20,000 nucleotides of DNA from Reclinomonas americana ATCC 50394. Its lineage: Eukaryota. Positions within the stretch are counted from its first letter, which is position 1; every line of letters starts with the position of its first letter. Under the pieces are notes generated by a model. The model did no database searches. It was not told where the DNA came from and saw nothing but the letters and a program-made list of their open reading frames with translations. Below are positions 1 through 19,666 of the stretch, piece after piece. A program made the position numbers and the translations under genes. The stretch spans positions 150,973-170,972 of the forward strand of contig PS015063.1 in assembly GCA_048213135.1 (NCBI GenBank), read 5' to 3'.

Positions 1-5527
<5,527 letters not shown>

Positions 5528-5549: not shown

Positions 5550-7399
5550 ATGAGTGACGTAAGCGATAAATTGTCCAAGCAAATGAGTGAGGTGCGCGCG
5601 CACACTCTCTCACTCACACACTCTCTTGTTACACACATTCACACACTCTCTGTTACACACATTCACACACTCACTCACTCACTCACTCACTCACACTCAA
5701 TTTCAAACTTTTCCACTCACTCTTTTCTCATTCTTCTCTCTCAGAGTGGCGACAGTGCGCCTAAACCGCGCGGAAAGCGCAGAAAGATCAACATTGATTA
5801 CATTCAAGTTGCGATCTCTTCATCTGTCTTTCTCTATTATTCTCTCTTTCTTCTCACACTTTTTTTGTTGTTTCTTCCGCTTGTTTCTTGTTTGTGTTTT
5901 TTTTTGTAGGATAAGACGCAGCGATTGACTACGTTCCACAAGCGCAAGGAGGGATTGTTGAAGAAGGTGAGAGTTGATGGAGAATGCGGCAAGTGCGGTT
6001 GATTTCTCGGATGCGCAGACACGCGTTCTCCTCTTGTGTGCACTCTTCTGTGTGCATAGCAGGGTACTTGCTGCCACTCTCGCACTCTCTCACTCTCACT
6101 CACTCGTTCACTCTGCCATTCGCCGCATTCATCTGCCAATCGAGAGTGGGCAAGTGCATTTGATACGTGTTCTCCTCTTGTGTGCACTCTTCTGTGTACA
6201 CAGCAGGGTACTTGCAGTTACTGTCACACTCGCACTCTCTCGTTCGCCCTGCCATTCACGACAATCATCTGCTGACTGAGAATGGGCAGCTCTGATTGAC
6301 TAGCGCACACACCTCCGTAATCTTCTGTGTGCACCAGGGCTCTCACGCTTTCGATGATCTAACGGTGGTTGCTGTCACTGTAACTCATTCTGTCGGACTC
6401 TTTTTCATCACGCGGTTCACTGTCGGGCAATTGCTGTCACTCGCATGGTTACACCTCACCGCTCGTTGTGAGCAAGTACTCTCTTGCATCCTGACTGAGC
6501 TCTCGCACATCCTCCCTTTTCTCCTCTCTCTCCCTTTCCCTCCGTTGCGCTCACTCCTCCCTCCCCAATATCGCAGGCGTACGAGTTGAGCACATTGACT
6601 GGATCGCAGATTCTGCTGCTCATTGCGTCGGAGACCGGCCAGGTTGGTGCTGCGTAGCTTGTTTGTGACCTCGCGCTGGTGTACATCGTCTCTTTCTCTC
6701 TCTCATAGTCATGCTCCTCATACCACGCCGTTGATTTCATCGTCTATATCACTCGCTTTCTCTGTCTCTCACTCACATTCTCACTGTGTTCTCATCTGTG
6801 TTTCTCTCTCTCTCTCCCCCCTCCCTCTCTCTCTCTCCATGCACATCTTGCCGCGCTGTCAATGTTATCATTCTCATCTTCTCACGCTGCACTCTTCATG
6901 CACACCATGGTTGACACGCTCGTGCACACCGTTGAGAGCAACCAGCTGATTCATGCTGCTGTTTCTCTCAGCTTCCTTCATGTACGCTTCTGCATTCTCT
7001 GATCTCACCGCGCATTTCGTTTCATCGTGCTCATTCTTGCCCTGTTCTCTCTGCTTCATTCATCCACGCTGCTGTTTCATGTTTCCTCCCCTGATTTCCC
7101 CGCGGCATTGTTGGCATCCTCCGTGTTCGAGTAGCTGTCCCTCTCAGCTTCATTCTCCCCCATTCTCTTTTTTCACCCTCCCTCCTGATTTCCCTCTTGC
7201 GCACATCTTTCCCTCACTTCACTCCCCCTCCCGCAGGTCTACACCTTCGCCACTCCCAAGTTCCAGCCCCTCATCACCCGCCCACCCGGCAAGACATTCA
7301 TCGAGGTGCGTCACGCTTCCCCTTCCACCACCCTCTCCCTCACTCACAATAACGCCGCTTTGCACCACACAGTCGTGCTTAAACGCGCCTGACGAGTGA
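5550..7399 (+). CDS. SRF: SRF/Mcm1-type (type I) MADS-box transcription factor, about 96-107 aa, 6 exons
   Basis: Exons 5550/5583-5591 (or 5550-5558), 5745-5807, 5910-5966, 6577-6642, 7237-7305, 7373-7399. They splice to MSE-SGDSAPKPRGKRRKINIDYIQ-DKTQRLTTFHKRKEGLLKK-AYELSTLTGSQILLLIASETGQ-VYTFATPKFQPLITRPPGKTFIE-SCLNAPDE*. This is colinear with the SRF/Mcm1 MADS + SAM domain (KKAYELSTLTG, ASETG.VYTFAT, CLN.P). The first exon is uncertain. Confidence 0.95.
5985..6340. repeat. Degenerate direct repeat of about 145 bp (2 good copies plus a decayed third) in MADS intron 3
   Basis: The block gttctcctcttgtgtgcactcttctgtgt(g/a)ca(t/c)agcagggtacttgc occurs at about 6025 and 6169, with a partial tcttctgtgtgcaccaggg at about 6321. 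Confidence 0.8.
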
Positions 7400-7528
7400 C
7401 GCCCGTCACCTAATGGACGTGTCTCCTCCCAATCACCATCATTTTCATTGCTCGCCTGGAGACACGCAAACACCATTAAAGTGACGCACGTCATCAAGCG
7501 GGGTTGTGTAAGTTGCTGTTGTTGTGTT

Positions 7529-10500
7529 TCAGTTGGCCATGAAGTCGCCACCTGTGGCGAAGAGGCAACGGCATCAGCAACATGTTCTCACAGAGGACAT
7601 CGCTCTCATTACTCTCTCTGCCTTCTCTCTCTCCAATTCTCGGACCACAACCCTTCGCTCACCCCTCTCGCCCGCGCATTCTTCAGAATAACACTGCCTC
7701 AGAACGCACTCAATGCCTGCTCTTTTTCTCTCCAACTCTCAGACCACAAACCCTCCATCGCTCACCCCAGTCGCCCGCGCATTCTTCAGAATAATACTGC
7801 ATCAGAAAGCACTCGATGACTTCTCACTTTCTCTCCAATTCTCCGACCACAAACCCTTCACTCACCCCTCTCGCCCGAACATTCTTCAGACAAACACTGC
7901 ATCAGAACGCACAAGATGCCTTCTCACTTTCTCCACTCGCTCACCCCTCTTGCCCGAATATTCTTCTGAAAAACACTGCCTCAGAACGCACTCAATGCCT
8001 GCTCTTTCTCTCCAACTCTCAGACCACAAACCCTCCTTCGCACCCCTCTTGCCCGAGCATTCTTCAGACCAACACTGCATCAGATCGCCTTCTCTTCTCT
8101 CCAATTCTCAGACCATAATCTCTCCACCACGAGATGCTCACAGTAAAAGCGCGCACATTCCCCTTCTACTTCCCTTCTCCTCCCTTCCCCCTTCCCCTCC
8201 CCTTCTCCTCCCCTCTCCCCTTCTCCTCCCTCCCCCCTTTCCCCTTTCCCCCTCCGCACCATTAATATCAATGGAGGCCCCATTAATATGCGCCGCACTC
8301 TCCGTCGCCAGAAACCCAATCAACGACGCAATCTCCGCCGGCTGCGCCATGCGACCGGCCGGACACCGCCTCTCCCACGCCGCCAGCGTCTCGGCCGGCA
8401 AGAACTTGCGCAACTCCTAACAAAAAATAAGGGTGAGGAGCGGTCACGAAAGAAACGCAGGCAAGCAAGTTTTCTTTACCGGCGTGTCGACGAGGGACGG
8501 GCACACGGCATTGACGGTGATGCCGTGGCGCGCCTCCATGCACGCCAGTTGCCTGGTGAGACCGAGCAGACCGGCCTTGGAGGCGCTCACGGGGAGGGAG
8601 CCTGGCGTGTCACTCGTGAGGAAAAGCAAAAAAGGGGGAAAAGGTGGAGATGGGGGGTGACGAACCGCCACGGCTGTGGCTCTTGCCGGCCTTGGACGAC
8701 AGATTAATGATGCGTCCCCAGCCGGCCTCGCGCATCTGCGGTGATTTGTGAGGGGAGGCGGGGATGGGGAAAGGGGGAAAACAGGGAGAAGCTTTACGCA
8801 ACGTACTTGATCGCAGCGCGGCATGTGTAGAACGAGCCCTGGGGATGGATAGTGAGTGAGGAGACAACGGAGCAGATCATCTTGCTCCTTCTTGTGACTC
8901 TTAGATACGCGCTCTCTCATCGCGATCCTTCTAGTCCATGCATTTTCACAGACTCTCGGTTGTACCCCAGCGCTCTCACCCGTGCGATCCTCACATTCTG
9001 ACATTCAGTCGCTACCAACGGCCCTTTGCACACTGCACTGGTCACAAAGCTCCTACCACTTGTTAACCCGCTGCTCCAGCGCTTCATTCCTCGCCCTGTG
9101 GCTGACTGTTGGTTGCTAACAAAGCCTGTCCACACACGCATCAACCTCGCGCACCCACCTCGCTGTTGTGGCAATGCTCAATTCCTCACACCCGTCACCT
9201 ACTACGCTCTTTCACTCACTGCGATGATCATTCATCTCCAACCGCTTGCTAACCGTGTGCAGTCAGCTCACAAGTGCTCGCTTCCTCGTCACTACTTTGC
9301 AAAGTGCACTCTCAACCTTGTGAATCATTTTTTCGATCCATTCCTGCATCCCCCTTCTCCTCTCACCCCCTTCTCCTCTCTCACCCCTTCTCCTCTCATC
9401 CCCCTTCTCCTCTCAGCCCCTTCTTCTATCATATGACCCCTTCGCCTCTCAACCCCTTCTCCTCTCAACCCCTTCTCCTCTCGACCCCTTCTCCTCTCTA
9501 CCTTCTCCTCTCACCCCCTTCTCCTCTCAACCCCCTTCTCCTCTCACCCCTTCTCCTCTCAACCCCTTCTCCTCTCGACCCCTTCTCCTCTCACCCCCTT
9601 CTCCTCTCAACCCCCTTCTCCTCTACTACCCTTCTCCTCTCCCTCCCTCTCTCTCCCTCCTCCCTCTCTCTCCTACTCTCCTACTCTCTCTCTACTCTCC
9701 TCTCTCTCTCTCTCTCTCGNNNNNNNNNNNNNNNNNNNNNNNNNNNNNNNNNNNNNNNNNNNNNNNNNNNNNNNNNNNNNNNNNNNNNNNNNNNNNNNNN
9801 NNNNNNNNNNNNNNNNNNNNNNNNNNNNNNNNNNNNNNNNNNNNNNNNNNNNNNNNNNNNNNNNNNNNNNNNNNNNNNNNNNNNNNNNNNNNNNNNNNNN
9901 NNNNNNNNNNNNNNNNNNNNNNNNNNNNNNNNNNNNNNNNNNNNNNNNNNNNNNNNNNNNNNNNNNNNNNNNNNNNNNNNNNNNNNNNNNNNNNNNNNNN
10001 NNNNNNNNNNNNNNNNNNNNNNNNNNNNNNNNNNNNNNNNNNNNNNNNNNNNNNNNNNNNNNNNNNNNNNNNNNNNNNNNNNNNNNNNNNNNNNNNNNNN
10101 NNNNNNNNNNNNNNNNNNNNNNNNNNNNNNNNNNNNNNNNNNNNNNNNNNNNNNNNNNNNNNNNNNNNNNNNNNNNNNNNNNNNNNNNNNNNNNCTTCTC
10201 CTCTCAACCCCTTCTCCTCTCATTCCCCTTCTCCTCTCATCCCCTTCTCCTCTCAACCCCTTCTCCTCTCATCCCCTTCTCCTCTCATCCCCCTTCTCCT
10301 CTCATCCCCCTTCTCCTCTCATCCCCTTTTCTCCTCTCAACCCCTTCTCCTCTCAACCCCTTCTCCTCTCACCGCCTTCTCCTCTCACCCCCTTCTCCTC
10401 TTAACCCTTCCCCTCTCAACCCCTTCTCCCCTCGACCCTTCTCCTCTCAACCCCTTCTCCTCTCGACCCCTTCTCCTCTCGACCCCTTTCTCCTCTCACC

Positions 10501-11133
10501 CCCTTCTCCTCTCACCCCCTTCTCCTCTCATCCCCCTTCTCCCCTCATCCGCCTTCTCCTCTCACCGCCTTCTCCTCTCAACCCCTTCCCCTCTCACGCC
10601 CTTCTCCTTTCCCGCCCTCACCGACAAATTGAAATCCATGATCAATCGCCACTCCTCATCCGTCATCTCGCAAATGTCCTTGTTGGGACGCGTTATCGTC
10701 GCACAGTTGACAAGAATGTGCAGCCGACCACCCATATCCTCCGCCGCTCGGGACACCACAATGCGGACCTCCTCCGAGCTCGACACGTTGAGTGGGATGA
10801 TCGAAATACGTTGCGCTGTTGGGGGGGAAGAATGAGACAGAATACAAGAGTTGCTGCTCGTGCGCGCGCGCGCACACACCTCCTGCAGGCGATGGTGGTG
10901 CGACGGGCAGCGAGGCCACGCACGCGCGCAGAGCCGTCTCGTCCACACCCGTCGCCACCACCGACGCACCCATGGCCCACAATTGGTGGACCACCGCGCA
11001 ACCAATGTCGCGGGAGCAGCTGCGGCGTGGGAAGGAGATGTGGTGAGCGCGGGTGTGAGGGAAGACAACTGTTGACAGGCAACACGAACCCAGTCACCAG
11101 AGCCACGCGACCGTGGAGAGGTGGGAGCACGGC
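7529..11133 (-). CDS. Classical short-chain dehydrogenase/reductase (FabG-like fold) with degenerate catalytic motifs; start exon not located (candidate ATG TCG micro-exon at 12902-12897)
   Basis: Exons 11133-11090, 11019-10880, 10815-10622, 8838-8803, 8735-8666, 8601-8480, 8416-8260, 7551-7529 give about 261 aa: LHGRVALVTGCSRDIG...GGRLHILVNCAT...MTDEEWRLIMDFNLSGSFYTCRAAIKYMREAGWGRIINLSSKAG...SLPVSASKAGLLGLTRQLA...HGITVNAVCPSLVDTP...CPAGRMAQPAEIASLIGFLA...HINGASIDINGGDFMAN*. Confidence 0.9.
7628..8115. repeat. Tandem repeat of about 100 bp unit (about 5 copies) filling the last SDR intron
   Basis: Recurring ctctccaa(t/c)tctc(a/g)gaccacaaaccct...cacccctct(c/t)gccc...attcttcaga...cactgc(a/c)tcagaacgca. 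Confidence 0.9.
9345..10600. repeat. Minisatellite of about 16-17 bp unit (CCCCTTCTCCTCTCAA/C) in the longest SDR intron, spanning an N gap
   Basis: Dozens of ccccttctcctctca(a/c/t) copies on both sides of gap 9720-10194. Confidence 0.95.
9720..10194. other. Assembly gap (others: 204-223, 4886-4905, 11709-12210, 12803-12822, 15762-15801, 17115-17607, 17810-17920)
   Basis: Runs of N, most adjacent to simple repeats. Confidence 1.
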
Positions 11134-11399
11134 CTGAGGGGAGGAGGGAAATCAGCGGAAAGAATAATCAGGACTGGAAGAGCCGGAATTTTGTCTGCGA
11201 TAAGAATGCTTCTCATAAACTACGGAGAAGGACAGCTGCTTATAAGACTCTGAATGCAACAGGGAGCTCTGCTGTTGTTCTCTCTCTCTCTCTCTCTCTC
11301 GCTGCACATCGGTAGCAAACTACTCGCTCGCGACTCTATCAATCTATCAAGATCCAGAATGCGTCGCTGTGCTCATTCCCTAAGCGATCCACGAACGTG

Positions 11400-11708
11400 C
11401 AAGACACCTTACCGCTCGCAATCACTCCTTTCCTCTCTGAGGATCAGTGCTGCTCCTTGGCAACAAGACAACTCGCTCGAGAATCAAGGGCGCCTCTCGC
11501 TCTCTTTTCCATTCTCTCACGTGAGACTCAATCGACTCGTTCACATGCTCAAGAAGAACGATGCTCTCAGCCCCACGCAATCACCGTCTCTTCAGTCTCA
11601 ATCCAGCTCGGAACATCATCGCAAATGATCATTGCAGTGGTTCGCAAGACACCTCAGTCAAGACTCGCAGCGTAGCTTGAGAATCAAGGGCGCCTCTCTC
11701 TCTCTCTC
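11400..11708. repeat. Degenerate direct duplication next to a gap
   Basis: gagaatcaagggcgcctctc at about 11478 and 11680; caagacacct at about 11400 and 11644. Confidence 0.6.
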
Positions 11709-12824
11709 NNNNNNNNNNNNNNNNNNNNNNNNNNNNNNNNNNNNNNNNNNNNNNNNNNNNNNNNNNNNNNNNNNNNNNNNNNNNNNNNNNNNNNNNNNNN
11801 NNNNNNNNNNNNNNNNNNNNNNNNNNNNNNNNNNNNNNNNNNNNNNNNNNNNNNNNNNNNNNNNNNNNNNNNNNNNNNNNNNNNNNNNNNNNNNNNNNNN
11901 NNNNNNNNNNNNNNNNNNNNNNNNNNNNNNNNNNNNNNNNNNNNNNNNNNNNNNNNNNNNNNNNNNNNNNNNNNNNNNNNNNNNNNNNNNNNNNNNNNNN
12001 NNNNNNNNNNNNNNNNNNNNNNNNNNNNNNNNNNNNNNNNNNNNNNNNNNNNNNNNNNNNNNNNNNNNNNNNNNNNNNNNNNNNNNNNNNNNNNNNNNNN
12101 NNNNNNNNNNNNNNNNNNNNNNNNNNNNNNNNNNNNNNNNNNNNNNNNNNNNNNNNNNNNNNNNNNNNNNNNNNNNNNNNNNNNNNNNNNNNNNNNNNNN
12201 NNNNNNNNNNAGAGAGAGAGAGAGAGAGAAGAGAGAAAAGAGGAAAGTAACAAGGAAGTAAACAGAAAGAAAGAAAGGGACGGAAACTTGATCACACAGA
12301 GCAACCGAACCACTGACTTCACAGACACACACTCTCTCTCTCATCCATTCTCACATGCAGACGAAAAGACGAGCAGACAGAGAGGAAGAAAGAAGCAGCG
12401 AGACAAGTTCACCAAACAGCCCGACTCAAAATGAAATTCGCAATGAACAGTGACCGAATACCGACGACGATGCAGACACAAACGCCGGTACTCTCGTATG
12501 CACATACGATACCAAACAGACAGAAAGAGAGACACAAAGACTTCTTCGCACTGACTCGCTGACATTCACGTTCTATCTCACACACTCATTCTTTCTCACG
12601 GCCAGCAGACAGAAAAAGAAAGGAAGATACACAAACAAATTCTTGCCAAAGCCCATGCACACATGCACACACACAAGCACACACAAGCACACACAAGCAC
12701 ACAAACACACAAAGAGAGAGAGAGAGAGAGTTATTGAGACGGACAGGCAGAACAACGGAAAAGAAACATTCTCCTCTCCCTTCCCCCTTCCCCCCCTTCC
12801 CCNNNNNNNNNNNNNNNNNNNNAG

Positions 12825-12865
<41 letters not shown>

Positions 12866-13175
12866 TGAGACAGCGAGAACGGCGTGCGAAGCTAACCGAC
12901 ATATGTAAGCAATCAGAAATATATCAGCAATCGACTCCCCTCTCTGCTGTCCCCAATGCAATTTGCTGATGCTCATGCGAAAGGCAACGAACGTGCACAA
13001 AATGCAAGCACGGCGGACCGCAAAGAGAACACAGAGCAAGTAAGAGAACAATCGGAAGACAGGCGAGTCTCAGAGAGAGAGAGAGAGATAGACTGACTGA
13101 GACACAGACAGGCAGACAGACAGACAGACAGAGAGACTCGCTCGCTCGCTCACACACACATGTACATGCAGAGAC

Positions 13176-13206
<31 letters not shown>

Positions 13207-13509
13207 CCGTGTGTGCTTGCGTGTGTGTGAGTAGAGAGAGGAGAGCAACATGAAGATGCAAGCATAGCGATAATGGCAGCAGAAATCTGGGAGAAGGAGA
13301 CACATTAACACACTCACACACTCACACACACACACATACACGCTCACACATCGACACGGATAGAAAGACGGACAGAGAGAAAAAAGAAACATGTCATTCC
13401 TCCCCTCTTGCCCCCTTCTCCCCTCTCCTTCCCCTTCTCCTTAATTCCCCCTTCCCCCTTTCCCCTCTCCTTCCCCCTTTCCCCCCCTCCTCCTCCTCCA
13501 CCACGCAAC

Positions 13510-15686
13510 GACTCCGACGCCACACCATCCACGGGCGGCAGCGCGGGCAAAAAGTGCGGCAAACTCGGCACCGCAGCCGCCGCCGCTGCAGCAGCCGTCG
13601 CAGCAGACAGCGCGCGCGTCGGCGGCCTACGAATGGGCTCGTCGTCGTCGCCCGACGATTCACTGCTGCTCGCCGAGTCGGTGGTGTCCTGCGCGTCCAC
13701 ATAAAAGGCCTGCACGATGTAGTAAGTCACTGCCTCGCCAGAAGCAGGCGACATAATCACATACCTGCTCGGACGATTCGTCGGCTTGTGCGTCGGGGGC
13801 GGCGGCACCTGCAGCGCGACGAACTCGCTTCGGACGACGCAAGCGGAAGCGCGTAATGTCGCTGGGAATCTGCATGGCAGAGAAGAGGGTGAGTGTTTCT
13901 GAATGTACACACACTTATGCAAGCAAACAGACACGCAACTCGAGTGCCCATCACACGGCGCTTCTTCTTGGCCGGACCGTCCCCATCGGCGCCATCCGGT
14001 GCACTCGAGTCGCCCTTGCGATCCTCGTCGGGCGAGATGGGACGCTTGGCTGGAGGGAGCGCACAACAATGAGCGGGCAAGATAAAGAGAGAACGAGATG
14101 CCAGCGACAAACCTTTCTTTGGTGCAGGCCGCCGCTGCTTCTGCGCTGCTCCACCAGCTGCCGCACCAGCCGCCGCAGCAGTCCCCGAGCCGGCTTCTGT
14201 GATTGCCGACGCGGAATCTGCGTGGAATTAAAGATGAGAGAATGACAACAGAAGGATATGGGAACTTCACACAAACCATCAGCTGGCGGCGCGGCAGAGA
14301 TTGGCGGTGTGGAAGGCGAATGAATGTCTGGGGCTGAGCGAGCGGTCCGCAAGCCGAGCATGAATGGGCGCATAATGTCCTGCACGAGTTGCACATGAGC
14401 GGAGCGTCACACTCTCTCCTGCTGCACGTCTGCGAACACACCTCCGGCGACTGCACACCCAGATTCCGCAGCTCGCGAGCAATGTTGGTTCGGCCGCGTC
14501 GAGTGTTGACTCCCGGCACAAAAGCACTGAGATTGTCGACCTGGAAATCGCGGCCGAAAATCTCCTCCGCCAGCTCGCTCGGCAGAATCGGTGGAGGCGG
14601 GGGCGCGGGACCGGCTGCCATGCGAGATGCAATGGTTAGAAACGACGCACCCCCCTTTTTCTCGTGCTCTCCCATTACTTACTGTCGGGAATGAGAACGT
14701 AGCCACGGCGCCCTCCCGATCCCGTCGGCGTCGGCACCGAGGGCGTCGCATCTGCCGCCGCCGCCGCCGACGAGCCACCACCACCACTGGCTCCAGTCGC
14801 CGTCGACGCACCTCCGCCCGCCGCAGCCGCAGCAGCATTCTTGTCGATAGGCGGGGAGGTGGGTGACAGCGCACTTGCACCACGTGCAGTCGACTTCTTC
14901 GAGCTCTGCTCGAAAGGTGAGCACGGCATCATCAGGAAAAAACATTACTTCACAGCACCCATCGCAACTTCCGTCGGCGACCCGAGTCCGCCATCGCGTC
15001 GCGATGACGACGACGGTGTCACTGGTACTGGCGCTCCACCGGCGCTGGAAACAGGAGGCGGAGGGATGGCCAGCGAACCCACAATGCCGGCACTCATCGC
15101 ATTGGCCGTCATCACCGACGGACTCCACACCGAGTCCAACGCGAGGCCAGCGGCCGGTGCCGTCAGCAAGTTGGCACTGGCGGCTGCAATGGCCACAGTG
15201 GCCGACGCCGACATGGCCGCAGCGGCGGCGGCGGCGGCGGCTGATGAAGAAGAGGCGGAGTAGGCGGTGGTCGACGACGAGGATGACGAGGATGCCAGGC
15301 CGTTGAGGGCGAAAAAGGCGGCCTGGTTGGAGTTGTTGCTCTGGCGGCCACCGGTGGCGGCGGGGATGCTCATGGGTGGGATGTTGAGGAGACTGCAAAA
15401 GGGGAAGGGGGAGGGGGAGGGGAAGGGTAAGGATAAGGAAAAGGGAAAGGAATTGGGGGAAAGAAAGGGAAAGGAAAAGGGGAAGGAAAAGGGGGAAGGA
15501 AAAGGGGGAATGAAAAGGGGTGAGGTGATGCAAAGAAACTTTCGAGAATGCTACGCTAGAGAAAGTGACCAAATATCAAGAGACACAATTGATGCGCAAA
15601 CGCCCTCAAACATACACGTACGGATGCACGAAAGAAACAACGACAAGAGCAACACAAAGACGAGTACACAAGAGAAAATGTGCTCA

Positions 15687-15754
<68 letters not shown>

Positions 15755-17690
15755 CAACGAANNNNNNNNNNNNNNNNNNNNNNNNNNNNNNNNNNNNNNN
15801 NCATGAGAGATGATACAAGAGGAGAAGGAAGAGAAGAGTGGGTACTGACGAACCACGTGGTGAGTTGCGCCAGGTAGGCGGGGCTGTTGAGGGGGAGGCC
15901 GGTGGCTGGAGAGGGGGGACTTTGAGACTGACTGGGCGTGATGATAGGTGCGGAGAGCAACAGACGATTCCAGAAGATTCTAAAACACGAAAAAGTTACA
16001 AAGCCATTGCCCGCCACAAACCTCGCCCAGCCTCCAGTGCCGTCTTGATGACTGCATGATCGGCTTCATTCTCAGCCTGCAGACGCAGTTCAGTGACACC
16101 GCGCACAATCAACGAAGACAAAGCAGACACACACCCGCAGACGCAAAGGCCAAGCGCCAGCACTGATGTTTTGGCGAACATTACGCGGCGTGCGCTGCAT
16201 CGCCAGACGCACAGACTCGCGAGCCTGCACGCGCAGCGGTTGTGTAAGCAGGCGGGGCAAGACCAAGGTGTCGCCACGGTCACGCAACTGCACGCTTCTT
16301 GAACATAATGGTCTCCCACTCCTCGCCCAGGCGCTTGTACTCGGTGACGAGTGCACGCGTTTTCTTGGCCTGCAGTCGGCGACGGAACAGCACCACCTGT
16401 CGCACACGCTCGCGCACCAGGGTGTTGTAGTCGAGTCGACTGAGCACGGCCGAGGATTCACCAGTGGGGCCTGCGCGACGCGATGAACATTATTCTCTTT
16501 CCCCCAGAACATGTAGCGACAAGGAACACAAACCATCGTCTTCATCGTCGTCTGCAGCCGCCAGCGAGGCCTCCTTTGCTCGCTGCTGTGTCTCATGCAG
16601 GCACTGCAGTGCGCGCTTCAACGTCTGCACACATCGAGGTGAGGTGCCTGAGAAAGAGTGAGCGACTGCAGAGACACTCGTGCCGCACCGATGGATCGTC
16701 ATCATCGACGACCGTGTCGCGGTCCATCTCCAGCAGCTTCGGGGCGACAAGCACATGTGCCCACTTGGCGCGCTTGCGGTTCTCGAGGGCCACGGTCTCG
16801 GCCCAGCGCAGGGGGCGCGGTTTCTTGGCTTCGGGGGCGGTGGGCTCCGTCGACACGGAGGTGGCGGTGGTGTTGGAGGAGCTCAGGCCTGGTCGAGGGG
16901 GCAAGAAGGGGGGAAGGGGGGGGAGGGGAAAGGAGGGAAGGGGGTGAATGGGAGAAGGGAGAGATAAGAGGAGAGGGATGGGGAGATGCGGTAAGGCGAG
17001 ACGGAGAGAGGTTGTGGATCACGATGACGGGTTACGGGGTCAAGAGCAGGAAGGTGAAGAGGATGTGGCAACAGAACGATGGCGAGGAAGCAAACGTGGA
17101 TGAGAGGCGAGGAGNNNNNNNNNNNNNNNNNNNNNNNNNNNNNNNNNNNNNNNNNNNNNNNNNNNNNNNNNNNNNNNNNNNNNNNNNNNNNNNNNNNNNN
17201 NNNNNNNNNNNNNNNNNNNNNNNNNNNNNNNNNNNNNNNNNNNNNNNNNNNNNNNNNNNNNNNNNNNNNNNNNNNNNNNNNNNNNNNNNNNNNNNNNNNN
17301 NNNNNNNNNNNNNNNNNNNNNNNNNNNNNNNNNNNNNNNNNNNNNNNNNNNNNNNNNNNNNNNNNNNNNNNNNNNNNNNNNNNNNNNNNNNNNNNNNNNN
17401 NNNNNNNNNNNNNNNNNNNNNNNNNNNNNNNNNNNNNNNNNNNNNNNNNNNNNNNNNNNNNNNNNNNNNNNNNNNNNNNNNNNNNNNNNNNNNNNNNNNN
17501 NNNNNNNNNNNNNNNNNNNNNNNNNNNNNNNNNNNNNNNNNNNNNNNNNNNNNNNNNNNNNNNNNNNNNNNNNNNNNNNNNNNNNNNNNNNNNNNNNNNN
17601 NNNNNNTTACATGATGCAAGGAGATGGGAAGACAAAAGATTGGAAATCAGAAAACCCCAGCAACAACAGAAGACGATCTCACTAATTGAG

Positions 17691-17746
<56 letters not shown>

Positions 17747-19666
17747 CGAGAACAGAATCAGCAGAAGGGACCGCTGGACAACCGACCACCCACTTTGATT
17801 GCACACCCCNNNNNNNNNNNNNNNNNNNNNNNNNNNNNNNNNNNNNNNNNNNNNNNNNNNNNNNNNNNNNNNNNNNNNNNNNNNNNNNNNNNNNNNNNNN
17901 NNNNNNNNNNNNNNNNNNNNAATCGACTCACCCGCTGCATCGCCTCCCGCCGCCAACTGCCTCGATTCCTCCTCGGCGCGCGCCAGTCGATCCTTCTCCT
18001 GCTGCTCACGCTGCCGCTGCGCCTGCAGTCGCCACTCGTGCTGCTCGCGCAGCTGCGAAATCGACTTGCGCATGGCAATCATGTCGACCTCGCTCTTGGT
18101 GATGTCGAGATCGATGCGATCAATGGCCTGCAACAGCTCGTCCTTGGTCGGCAACTGCGGGCGATCCACCAACGGCGGCAGCGGGCCGGTCTCGGCCGTG
18201 TCCGCGCCACCCGCCGCCGTGCCCGACAGCGGTGGGAGGGATGACGACGAGGAGGCCGACTGCAGCGGAGGTGGAGGCGGCAGCGGTGGTGGTGGGTGGG
18301 AGGGAGGTGGATGCGCGTGCATGTATTGCGGTGACGGCACACTGTCCACCAGGTGGCTCGGCAGTGTCAGCGGCGGCGGTGGGGCCTTGGAGAAGAATGG
18401 AGAGCGCCGAGGTGATGGGGCAGTGGCTTGCGACGAGGCCGGCGTGGTTGGAGGAGGAGGTGGTGGTGCAGAGGCCGAGGCGGGCGACGCCGACGACGGG
18501 GACGGCTGGGAGACGCCGCCGGGTGTCAGTGGTCCGCCGCGTGAGAGGCCAGAGAGAGGGGGTGGTGGGTAGCGCTGCGCGAGGGGGGTAAGAGAGATGG
18601 GGGGAAAGGGAAGAAGAAAGAGGTGGGGAGGGGAGTAGGGAGGCGCAACGTCACGCGAAGGGGGGATGGCAGGTGGTGGTCCACTGCTACCGCGGTACGG
18701 ACCGGCATCACGGGGTGGGGAGTCGACGCGACGGCGTTTCAGCATGGAGCCGTCGTCGCTGCCGCCTCGGGAGTAGGCCACCTGGGGGGATCACAAAGGG
18801 ATGAGAGAGTGTGGGAAGCATGGAGAAGCAGACATCGAAGTTGAAGAATATTAGATGCGCGAATGAAGGGAGAAGCAAATGAGCGATCGGAGACAGAGGC
18901 AATCGTCCAGGGAGAAGAATATCAGATGCGCGAATGAAAGGAGAAGCAGATAAAGGATCGACGACTGTAAAAGATGGGAAAATGAAACAGCAAAGATCGA
19001 GGAATGACGATATGCAATGCATCTATACAGCACGCGAGTCAGCGACAGCACAATCGACAGCATGTCAAAGCTCAACTTCCGTGACAAGCTCTCGTGTGTG
19101 ATTTCCTTCAAGACGACTGACAAACGATCGACAGCAAGGATCGAGGAATCATGATGTGCAACACAAACAATACAGTCCATGGACGAGTCGGCGACAGCTC
19201 GCACAGGAATGCGACGAAAGTCAAAGCTCGGCATGAAGGAAATCTCTCTCTGTCTCTCTCTCTCTCATACAAACACGCACGCACGCACGCACAGGATTCC
19301 TCTACAACCACCGAACTCGCGCGACAACTATACGCTCAAAGAGGCACCCTCACGAAAACATAAAAATCCTCATGACACACAAGAGTTTCCTCTTCTCAAC
19401 CAACGTGCTGGTAGTGTACACACACGAGTGCTGCGAATATCCACTTGCGCCTCTCATGACCAACTCACCCCTGCGTACGCCGACGATGGATTGCTGCGCG
19501 TGATAATCGGCAAGTCGGGATCGCGTTCCGAGCGCTTGCCGGTTCCCCTCAGTGCGGTCGGCTGTGGTGGTGGCGAGGAGCCACGATACGACGATGATGA
19601 AGAGGAGGAACCCGAGGCGGAGGGAGGCAGAGCCCGTGATGAGCCGGACGGGGGACCGCGTGGCCA
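13510..19666 (-). CDS. Nuclear receptor corepressor-like (N-CoR/SMRT/Snt1 family N-terminal, GPS2/TBL1-interacting region) protein; both ends unresolved, about 1030 aa visible
   Basis: Phase-consistent exons 19666-19469, 18781-18650, 18574-17932, 16888-16689, 16624-16534, 16470-16289, 16224-16135, 16076-16022, 15905-15854, 15392-14969, 14905-14683, 14614-14442, 14379-14277, 14217-14113, 14049-13940, 13869-13765, 13709-13510. Motifs occur in N-CoR order (N-CoR sequence recalled, not searched): TKDELLQAIDRIDLDITKSE ~ SKEELIQSMDRVDREIAKVE; VALENRKRAKWAH ~ IYDENRKKAEEAH; LVTEYKRLGEEWE ~ ICQRYDQLMEAWE; LLNIPPM...FFALNGL ~ LSVIPPM...FINMNGL. Basic NLS-like stretches: LKRRRV, PAKKKRR. Confidence 0.75.
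15689..15752. repeat. (AC)n microsatellite, intronic
   Basis: Perfect AC run of about 60 bp. Confidence 0.95.
18840..19165. repeat. Short degenerate direct repeats in an intron of the N-CoR-like gene
   Basis: gaagaatat(t/c)agatgcgcgaatgaa(g/a)ggagaagca at about 18843 and 18914; cagcaa(a/g)gatcgaggaat at about 18988 and 19132. Confidence 0.7.

Follow-up and report, generated by a model that had tools for sequence, protein, structure and literature searches.

Can the last base of an exon decide which of two donor words opens the intron that follows? The question is raised by a stretch of 20,000 nucleotides (nt) from Reclinomonas americana ATCC 50394 (NCBI GenBank assembly GCA_048213135.1, contig PS015063.1, positions 150,973 to 170,972 of the forward strand; hereafter the window, within which all coordinates are counted), where seven putative donors read GTTGCG, none of them after an exon that ends in G. 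The window consists of eukaryotic DNA with many assembly gaps and microsatellites, and four genes can be recognised in it: a repeat-protein gene, a MADS/SRF-type gene, a short-chain dehydrogenase (SDR) gene and an NCoR-like gene. The evidence assembled below suggests with high probability that the GTTGCG donors are a real class. The explanation that we favour, with chances that we consider evenly balanced, is that GTTGCG(T) would be a genuine second class of U2-type GT-AG donor, serving exon ends other than G and read in a register shifted by one base into the intron (+1 shifted register).

Placement of the GTTGCG word

The donor set is our own hand annotation of the four genes from three-frame translations and comprises 43 putative donors, placed by frame, homology, composition and motifs. 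The seven GTTGCG words lie at 5808 on the plus strand and at 8802, 13509, 13939, 14968, 16288 and 18649 on the minus strand, preceded at position -1 by A, C, C, A, A, A and C, respectively. A preliminary description of the window had listed these seven, all lacking G at -1, together with G|GTGCG words at 5592, 7306, 8259 and 16688, and each was verified in the sequence. It had further counted GTTGCG at 7 of 10 donors without G(-1) and at 0 of 34 with it; our annotation, with 10 donors of the first kind and 33 of the second, reproduces the association (7/10 versus 0/33; Fisher p=3.7e-6). The three other donors without G(-1) read A|GTGTGT (2842), T|GTGAGT (2430) and A|GTAAGT (14682). The 36 ordinary donors carry G at -1 (33), G at +5 (34), T at +6 (21) and A at -2 (20), which gives the general form (A)G|GTNNGT.

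As a word, GTTGCG is not enriched: both strands together hold 14 matches against 10.96 +/- 2.91 expected, a number that is reached in 38 of 200 shuffles. Ten copies lie on the sense strand of the genes, seven of them at inferred exon-intron boundaries, two in SDR exons (8409 and 10997) and one in a MADS intron (6544). Both copies in SDR exons are on the minus strand and in frame, one as G|GTTGCG in exon 2 (10997) and the other as A|GTTGCG in exon 7, two bases from its acceptor (8409), and neither is used as a donor. It is the placement of GTTGCG, rather than its frequency, that stands out. With 7 of 43 donors in one window, distributed over three genes, about one intron in six has an inferred GTTGCG start. 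The earlier proposal of a GTTGCG donor class in three genes, limited to exon ends other than G, is thereby borne out by the association just described and, as set out in the next two sections, by profile, frame and branch-motif evidence.

Firmness of the individual junctions

The predicted junction at 8802 is fixed by Pfam profile arithmetic, independently of the motif. It opens SDR intron 4 (8736..8802, minus strand, 67 nt, TAC|GTTGCG, phase 0); exon 3 reaches approximately position 110 of adh_short and exon 5 resumes at position 123, and the 12-residue exon 4 (8838-8803) fits the gap exactly, with a stop codon two codons past the junction. The SDR exon matches are colinear with the order of the profile, and the joined SDR exons are stop-free. 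A word-indexed protein search with SDR exon 3 among longer proteins returned two candidates, none significant.

The predicted junction at 5808, which opens MADS/SRF intron 2 (5808..5909, plus strand, 102 nt, CAA|GTTGCG, phase 0), is fixed by frame together with what we take to be the N-terminal MADS consensus, supplied by exon 2 at the correct spacing. The sole other frame-compatible GT within 60 nt, at 5826, would insert six residues in the MADS box. Downstream of the intron, exon 3 corresponds to positions 4-22 and exon 4 to positions 23-44 of the Pfam SRF-TF profile; this model starts three positions before exon 3, so that the match does not span the junction itself. Exon 2, with its 21 residues, gave no match at E<=10 against the PDB. 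The preliminary description had regarded both junctions as fixed by homology. This stands for 8802, through the adh_short arithmetic, and stands in part for 5808, where enumeration of frames and the SRF-TF match of exons 3 and 4 carry the case and the spacing at the MADS N-terminus is our assumption.

We infer four further junctions, all in the NCoR-like gene on the minus strand and all in phase 0, from frame, composition and branch-site motifs. Within 60 nt, the candidate intron that begins at 18649 (18575..18649, 75 nt, GAC|GTTGCG) has no competing GT-AG pair that fits the frame, and its composition is intron-like in each of the three frames (range -26 to -39 per 100 nt); here composition and a branch motif speak for splicing. 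At 16288 (16225..16288, 64 nt, GCA|GTTGCG) the case is made by frame and branch motif, given that a stop lies two codons past the junction and that there is no alternative donor other than one 60 nt upstream, with ambiguous composition (-4.8 to +7.3). This putative intron lies in a chain of 14 exons joined over 13 introns, three of them with GTTGCG, that encodes 703 residues without a stop; the other chain of NCoR-like exons, of 258 residues, is likewise stop-free. Frame and branch motif also point to the intron at 14968 (14906..14968, 63 nt, GAA|GTTGCG), past whose donor a stop follows after 8 codons. The intron at 13939 (13870..13939, 70 nt, CGA|GTTGCG) would be supported by frame, composition and branch motif, as its removal shifts the frame by one, which the flanking open frames require, and its composition is intron-like (-11 per 100 nt). 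The composition model thus distinguishes the introns at 18649 and 13939 from the sequence on either side; the purine-rich block that follows 13509 lies outside its range of application.

For the exon that ends at 16288 (16289-16486), a word-indexed protein search among longer proteins produced 65 candidates, 0 of them significant, and an exhaustive HMMER search produced two hits (P0001 and P0002), both internally repetitive and matching over short repeated stretches only. Because the matches run through such short repeats, they are of no help for the junction, and neither search detected a relative of this exon.

The weakest of the seven is 13509 (13504..13509, minus strand, GTC|GTTGCG), in agreement with the ranking of the preliminary description. 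It is a doubtful donor in phase 2, or else a gene end, with the frame open to 13344; an acceptor was looked for and none was found, and the purine-rich block downstream resembles no other intron in the window, where introns are rich in pyrimidines. The position may mark the end of the NCoR-like gene rather than a donor.

Purine-rich blocks (GGGGAAAGG-like, minus strand) occur twice in the window, directly after G|GTGCGG at 8259 (8140-8259) and directly after C|GTTGCG at 13509 (13400-13509), and their composition is opposite to that of every other intron. Instead of introns, both may represent the ends of genes that carry low-complexity tails.

Intron properties beyond the donor

Six of the seven GTTGCG sites have an AG that restores the frame, as U2-type GT-AG introns do. 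Five of these six introns carry the motif CTYAC 13-21 nt before the AG, namely CTCAC at 14 nt (8802), CTTAC at 15 nt (18649), CTTAC at 21 nt (16288), CTCAC at 13 nt (14968) and CTCAC at 21 nt (13939). The intron at 5808 has no CTYAC in its last 45 nt and has a long T tract instead. Over all introns, the looser CTYAY is present in the last 45 nt of 24 out of 40, compared to 20 out of 120 interior windows of 45 nt.

Past the donor, the GTTGCG introns show no similarity to one another, the mean local alignment score being 8.2 inside the class, 7.9 when its members are set against other short introns and 7.7 for those others compared with each other; an introner-like mobile family was rejected, since the introns share no sequence beyond the donor. 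U12-type introns have the donor consensus /RTATCCTT, and this identity was rejected as well, all seven sites reading GTTGCG. A spurious T of the 454 type, inserted into GTGCG, would not track the -1 base and was rejected on this ground. Sliding the junction by one base, so as to obtain a TT...GG intron, was also rejected: it would leave the messenger RNA unchanged at 5808, but 8802 does not permit it, as the exon that follows begins with A.

The register in which GTTGCG donors may be read

Read in the canonical frame, GTTGCG donors are without both of the near-invariant Gs, at -1 and at +5. Read one base further into the intron, all seven sites have G at the places of both the ordinary -1G and the ordinary +5G, while T stands at the place of +6T in 4/7 and A at that of -2A in 4/7, and these statistics fit a one-base displacement of the ordinary signal. 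The claim of the preliminary description that GTTGCG is the ordinary motif displaced by one nucleotide is therefore upheld by the positional statistics; it needs amending in that the class is narrower than the ordinary one, all seven members carrying GCG as opposed to 4 of 36 ordinary donors.

The codons at the exon ends point in the same direction. Six of the seven GTTGCG donors are in phase 0, and two of the codons that precede them, TAC and GAC, cannot end in G. The other four (CAA, GCA, GAA and CGA) belong to families able to end in G, in which the share of A-ending codons is 15-24%, and the joint probability of finding A in all four is ~1e-3; by comparison, 12 of 12 ordinary donors in phase 0 come after a codon ending in G. 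In the shifted register A is to be expected at -1, because this position corresponds there to the ordinary -2. The presence of A rather than G at -1, including at the flexible codons, therefore favours the +1 shifted reading over a bulged U.

Pairing energies were calculated with the human-type U1 end AUACUUACCUG as printed in Tan et al. 2016 (PMC4856993), which may differ from the organism's own U1, and all the energies given here are to be read with that limit. With the registers forced, the shifted one outperforms the canonical one at 5 of 7 sites and a bulge at +3 at 6 of 7.

These observations can be accommodated in a simple scheme. The second class, (A)|GTTGCGT, is the ordinary word with its second G replaced by T; as a consequence of this replacement, the only usable GU sits one base upstream. 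The reader of the ordinary word, most likely the 5' end of the U1 small nuclear RNA (snRNA) and later U6, would bind GTTGCG sites one base further into the intron, and cleavage would still follow the GU. While the whole RNA-RNA mechanism is something that we infer, the shifted register appears to be the best-supported mechanism, and we would give it about half of the total probability.

Several observations weigh against this explanation. The test on A-ending codons is post hoc and rests on n=4. The helix in the shifted register reaches a negative energy at only 2 of 7 sites, and for the best unconstrained duplex the median is -1.9 kcal/mol at GTTGCG sites versus -7.5 kcal/mol at the other 36 donors (Mann-Whitney p=5.5e-5). 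The fixed GCG (7/7 versus 4/36 ordinary donors, p=1e-5) is likewise more than a displacement calls for: among ordinary donors GTGAG (12/36) is commoner than the GCG form (4/36), so that a plain shift would also predict displaced words such as GTTGAG. According to the adh_short match, the copy at 10997 in SDR exon 2 is not spliced, and GTTGCG alone is hence insufficient for a donor. Homology anchors only two of the seven junctions, with 13509 doubtful; 14968 has a frame-compatible alternative at 14953 (GCT|GTGAAGT, giving a 48-nt intron) and 13939 has one at 13954, and the segment 18575..18649 is in frame and stop-free, which makes its removal dispensable and read-through possible. Finally, donors were picked by eye both in the preliminary description and in the present analysis, and the motif may have steered the choices in the low-complexity NCoR-like gene.

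GTTGCG donors thus have a word of their own, tighter than the ordinary one, and this would fit either compensation for weak pairing or a reader whose complementary end is GC-rich, such as a retuned or second U1.

A bolder version of the favoured explanation, which we hold as tentative, posits two co-equal 5' splice-site codes. The word (A)G-N-U-G-C-G-U would be bound at a fixed place and the cut made where GU lies, so that the last base of the exon would determine which of G|GUGCGU and H|GUUGCGU is used. For the second code, either obligatory +1 shifted pairing with U1, followed by a bulged U6 helix, or an additional U1-like snRNA devoted to it would be at work.

A real class could also be explained in another way, by a dedicated or retuned snRNA: an additional U1-like RNA, or a U1 whose 5' end complements GUUGCG(U), would read these donors in a normal register of its own. 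This is in line with the sharp definition of the class (TGCG at +3 to +6 in 7/7, when ordinary donors vary at +3 and +4 and show GCG in 4/36), with the poor pairing of the human-type U1 end to GTTGCG sites in every register, and with the existence of co-evolved U1 5' ends, ACAAAC in Entamoeba and ACGUAC in Mastigamoeba, described in a preprint on such systems (bioRxiv 10.1101/2022.06.08.495308). Yet the same preprint assigns a standard U1 to lineages with GYGCGY or +4C donors, and such an RNA alone does not explain why the frequencies of -1A and +7T mirror those of the ordinary -2A and +6T. A search of the window against Rfam (E<=1) yielded no snRNA gene, its matches being microRNA-like chance hits driven by microsatellites. 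We consider this explanation unlikely.

Still using the canonical register, a real class could arise if one U, at +2 or +3, were bulged from the U1 and U6 helices, so that the downstream GCGU would land at its ordinary places. Human sites with bulge +2/+3 registers are on record (Tan et al. 2016, PMC4856993); with the human-type U1, a forced bulge at +3 is better than the canonical register at 6 of 7 sites, and for U6 a flipped-out U at +3 would presumably restore the pairing positions of +5G and +6U. However, the canonical register should favour G(-1), as it does in 33 of 36 ordinary donors, and the exon-side G is kept at 0 of 7 GTTGCG sites, with A taken even where synonymous codons offer G. 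All seven bulge energies are positive, and the shifted register is better at 6 of 7 sites. We regard a bulged U as an improbable solution.

That the class is an artefact of misplaced junctions in low-complexity coding sequence, of motif-guided annotation or of an assembly error adding T to GTGCG is very improbable. In favour of an artefact are the location of five of the seven sites in a single gene of poor conservation, the frame-compatible alternatives at 14968 and 13939, the dispensable splicing at 18649, the doubtful donor at 13509, the lack of overall enrichment of the word and the many gaps of the assembly. Against it, neither 8802 nor 5808 depends on the motif for its placement, extra Ts arising at random would not be confined to donors without G(-1), the GTTGCG copies inside SDR exons are in frame, and branch-site motifs and composition back the introns.

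Relation to known systems

The closest precedent for the shifted reading of GTTGCG donors is found in human 5' splice sites (5'ss) of the +1 shifted register, in which the donor is GU and every base pair with U1 lies one position deeper in the intron (Roca and Krainer 2009, as described in Tan et al. 2016, PMC4856993). As in those sites, the downstream bases of GTTGCG donors would fit only when moved one base in, with cleavage still predicted at the GU, and the human model site (ACA/GUCAAGUAU) equally lacks G at -1. In humans such sites are rare exceptions, the sum of all validated noncanonical registers being ~1.5% of 5'ss according to Tan et al. 2016 (PMC4856993); GTTGCG, by contrast, accounts for 7 of 43 donors in one window and occurs in three genes. 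The word is also nearly fixed here as GTTGCG, with a tail of GCG that differs from the U1-complementary AAGU of the human sites, and the base pairing in the window is putative. The human bulge +2/+3 and asymmetric-loop registers covered in the same paper (PMC4856993) share with GTTGCG an extra U right after the GU and a remaining donor displaced by one base; those sites keep canonical pairing on the exon side (e.g., CAG/GUU...), whereas G(-1) is absent here in 7 of 7.

Lineage-specific donor words offer a second comparison. According to the preprint already mentioned (bioRxiv 10.1101/2022.06.08.495308), GUUUGU(U) donors of Entamoeba, with a co-evolved U1, constitute one class that covers ~88-90% of introns and is read in the normal register. 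GTTGCG resembles them in the U at +3, in being a tight lineage-specific word, in the preference at +7 and in having an altered snRNA as a possible reader; unlike the single class of Entamoeba, two classes would coexist here, with the exon-end base deciding which is used. The same source describes GYGCGY donors in Mamiellales and +4C donors in Thecamonas, lineages in which U1 is standard. Their GC-rich flavour recurs in the ordinary G|GTGCG(T) donors of the window, and a displaced GTTGCG subclass is not mentioned for those lineages in the relevant passages of the preprint.

Among other reports, all 134 introns of Andalucia are given as GT...AG, with nothing further on donors in the passages concerned (Gray et al. 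2020, PMC7050145), and a tunicate preprint (10.1101/2025.08.15.670264) raises a shifted register, in the part that deals with it, merely as a possibility. Literature searches for GTTGCG/GUUGCG, jakobid splice sites and shifted registers found no description of GTTGCG donors or of jakobid 5'ss.

Implications of a second donor class

Noncanonical U1 registers are so far known from rare human sites. If about one intron in six used such a register, as the favoured explanation would have it, the register would become an evolvable and selectable part of the splicing code, and hundreds of natural test cases would be at hand for the hand-over of the 5'ss between U1, U5 and U6 and for the fixing of the cleavage position. 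Were the two-code version true, a noncanonical register would for the first time be seen as a routine and selected component of an organism's splicing code, and a natural system would be available for separating recognition of the 5'ss from the choice of the cleavage site. In practical terms, gene finders trained on ordinary donors would mis-call such exons; in the window this concerns three of the four genes. The predicted tie between donor class and final exon base, with A at synonymous sites, can be tested directly.

Ordinary donors and their variation between genes

Ordinary donors of the GTGCG form are exemplified by GAG|GTGCGC at the start of MADS intron 1 (5592..5597, plus strand), GAG|GTGCGT after MADS exon 5 (7306..7311, plus strand) and TCG|GTGCGG in the NCoR-like gene (16683..16688, minus strand). 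T at +3 is rare in animals; here it is present at eight donors with G(-1) that are in the ordinary register, located at 16533, 16021, 14276, 14112, 11089, 8665 and 15853 on the minus strand and at 6643 on the plus strand. They read GTTTGT (four), GTTCGT (three) and GTTGGT (one), and all keep +5G and +6T.

The genes differ in these features. The repeat-protein gene (1-5512, minus strand) has 14 donors, none of them with T at +3 and eight with GTGAG, and its branch motifs are CTGAC- or CTAAC-like. The other three genes (5550-19666) have 29 donors, 15 of them with T at +3, and branch motifs of the form CTCAC, CTCAT or CTTAC.

Genes and repeats of the window

The repeat-protein gene, read by hand, runs on the minus strand from 5512 to the start of the window and is characterised by FxxN and GGGA-type motifs. 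The first five exons of the MADS/SRF-type gene occupy 5550..7305 on the plus strand, with Pfam SRF-TF matched by exons 3 and 4 and the exon join stop-free. The SDR gene has seven exons at 8260..11133 on the minus strand, of which exons 2, 3, 5, 6 and 7 match adh_short and adh_short_C2. The low-complexity NCoR-like gene (13510..19666, minus strand), with 17 inferred exons, carries five of the seven GTTGCG sites; its exon 18574-17933 matches the Pfam family GPS2_interact (PF15784) at E=7e-07, and no SANT domain was seen in the window for the gene (13510-19666).

Two repeat arrays accompany these genes. An SDR intron of 1783 nt is filled by a long pyrimidine array with a unit of ~12-13 bases (cttctcctctca-like), which extends over 9350-10600 and is broken by an assembly gap. 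Tandem units of ~110 bases can be recognised by eye at 7600-8100, 3' of MADS exon 5, in the interval on which the MADS and SDR genes converge.

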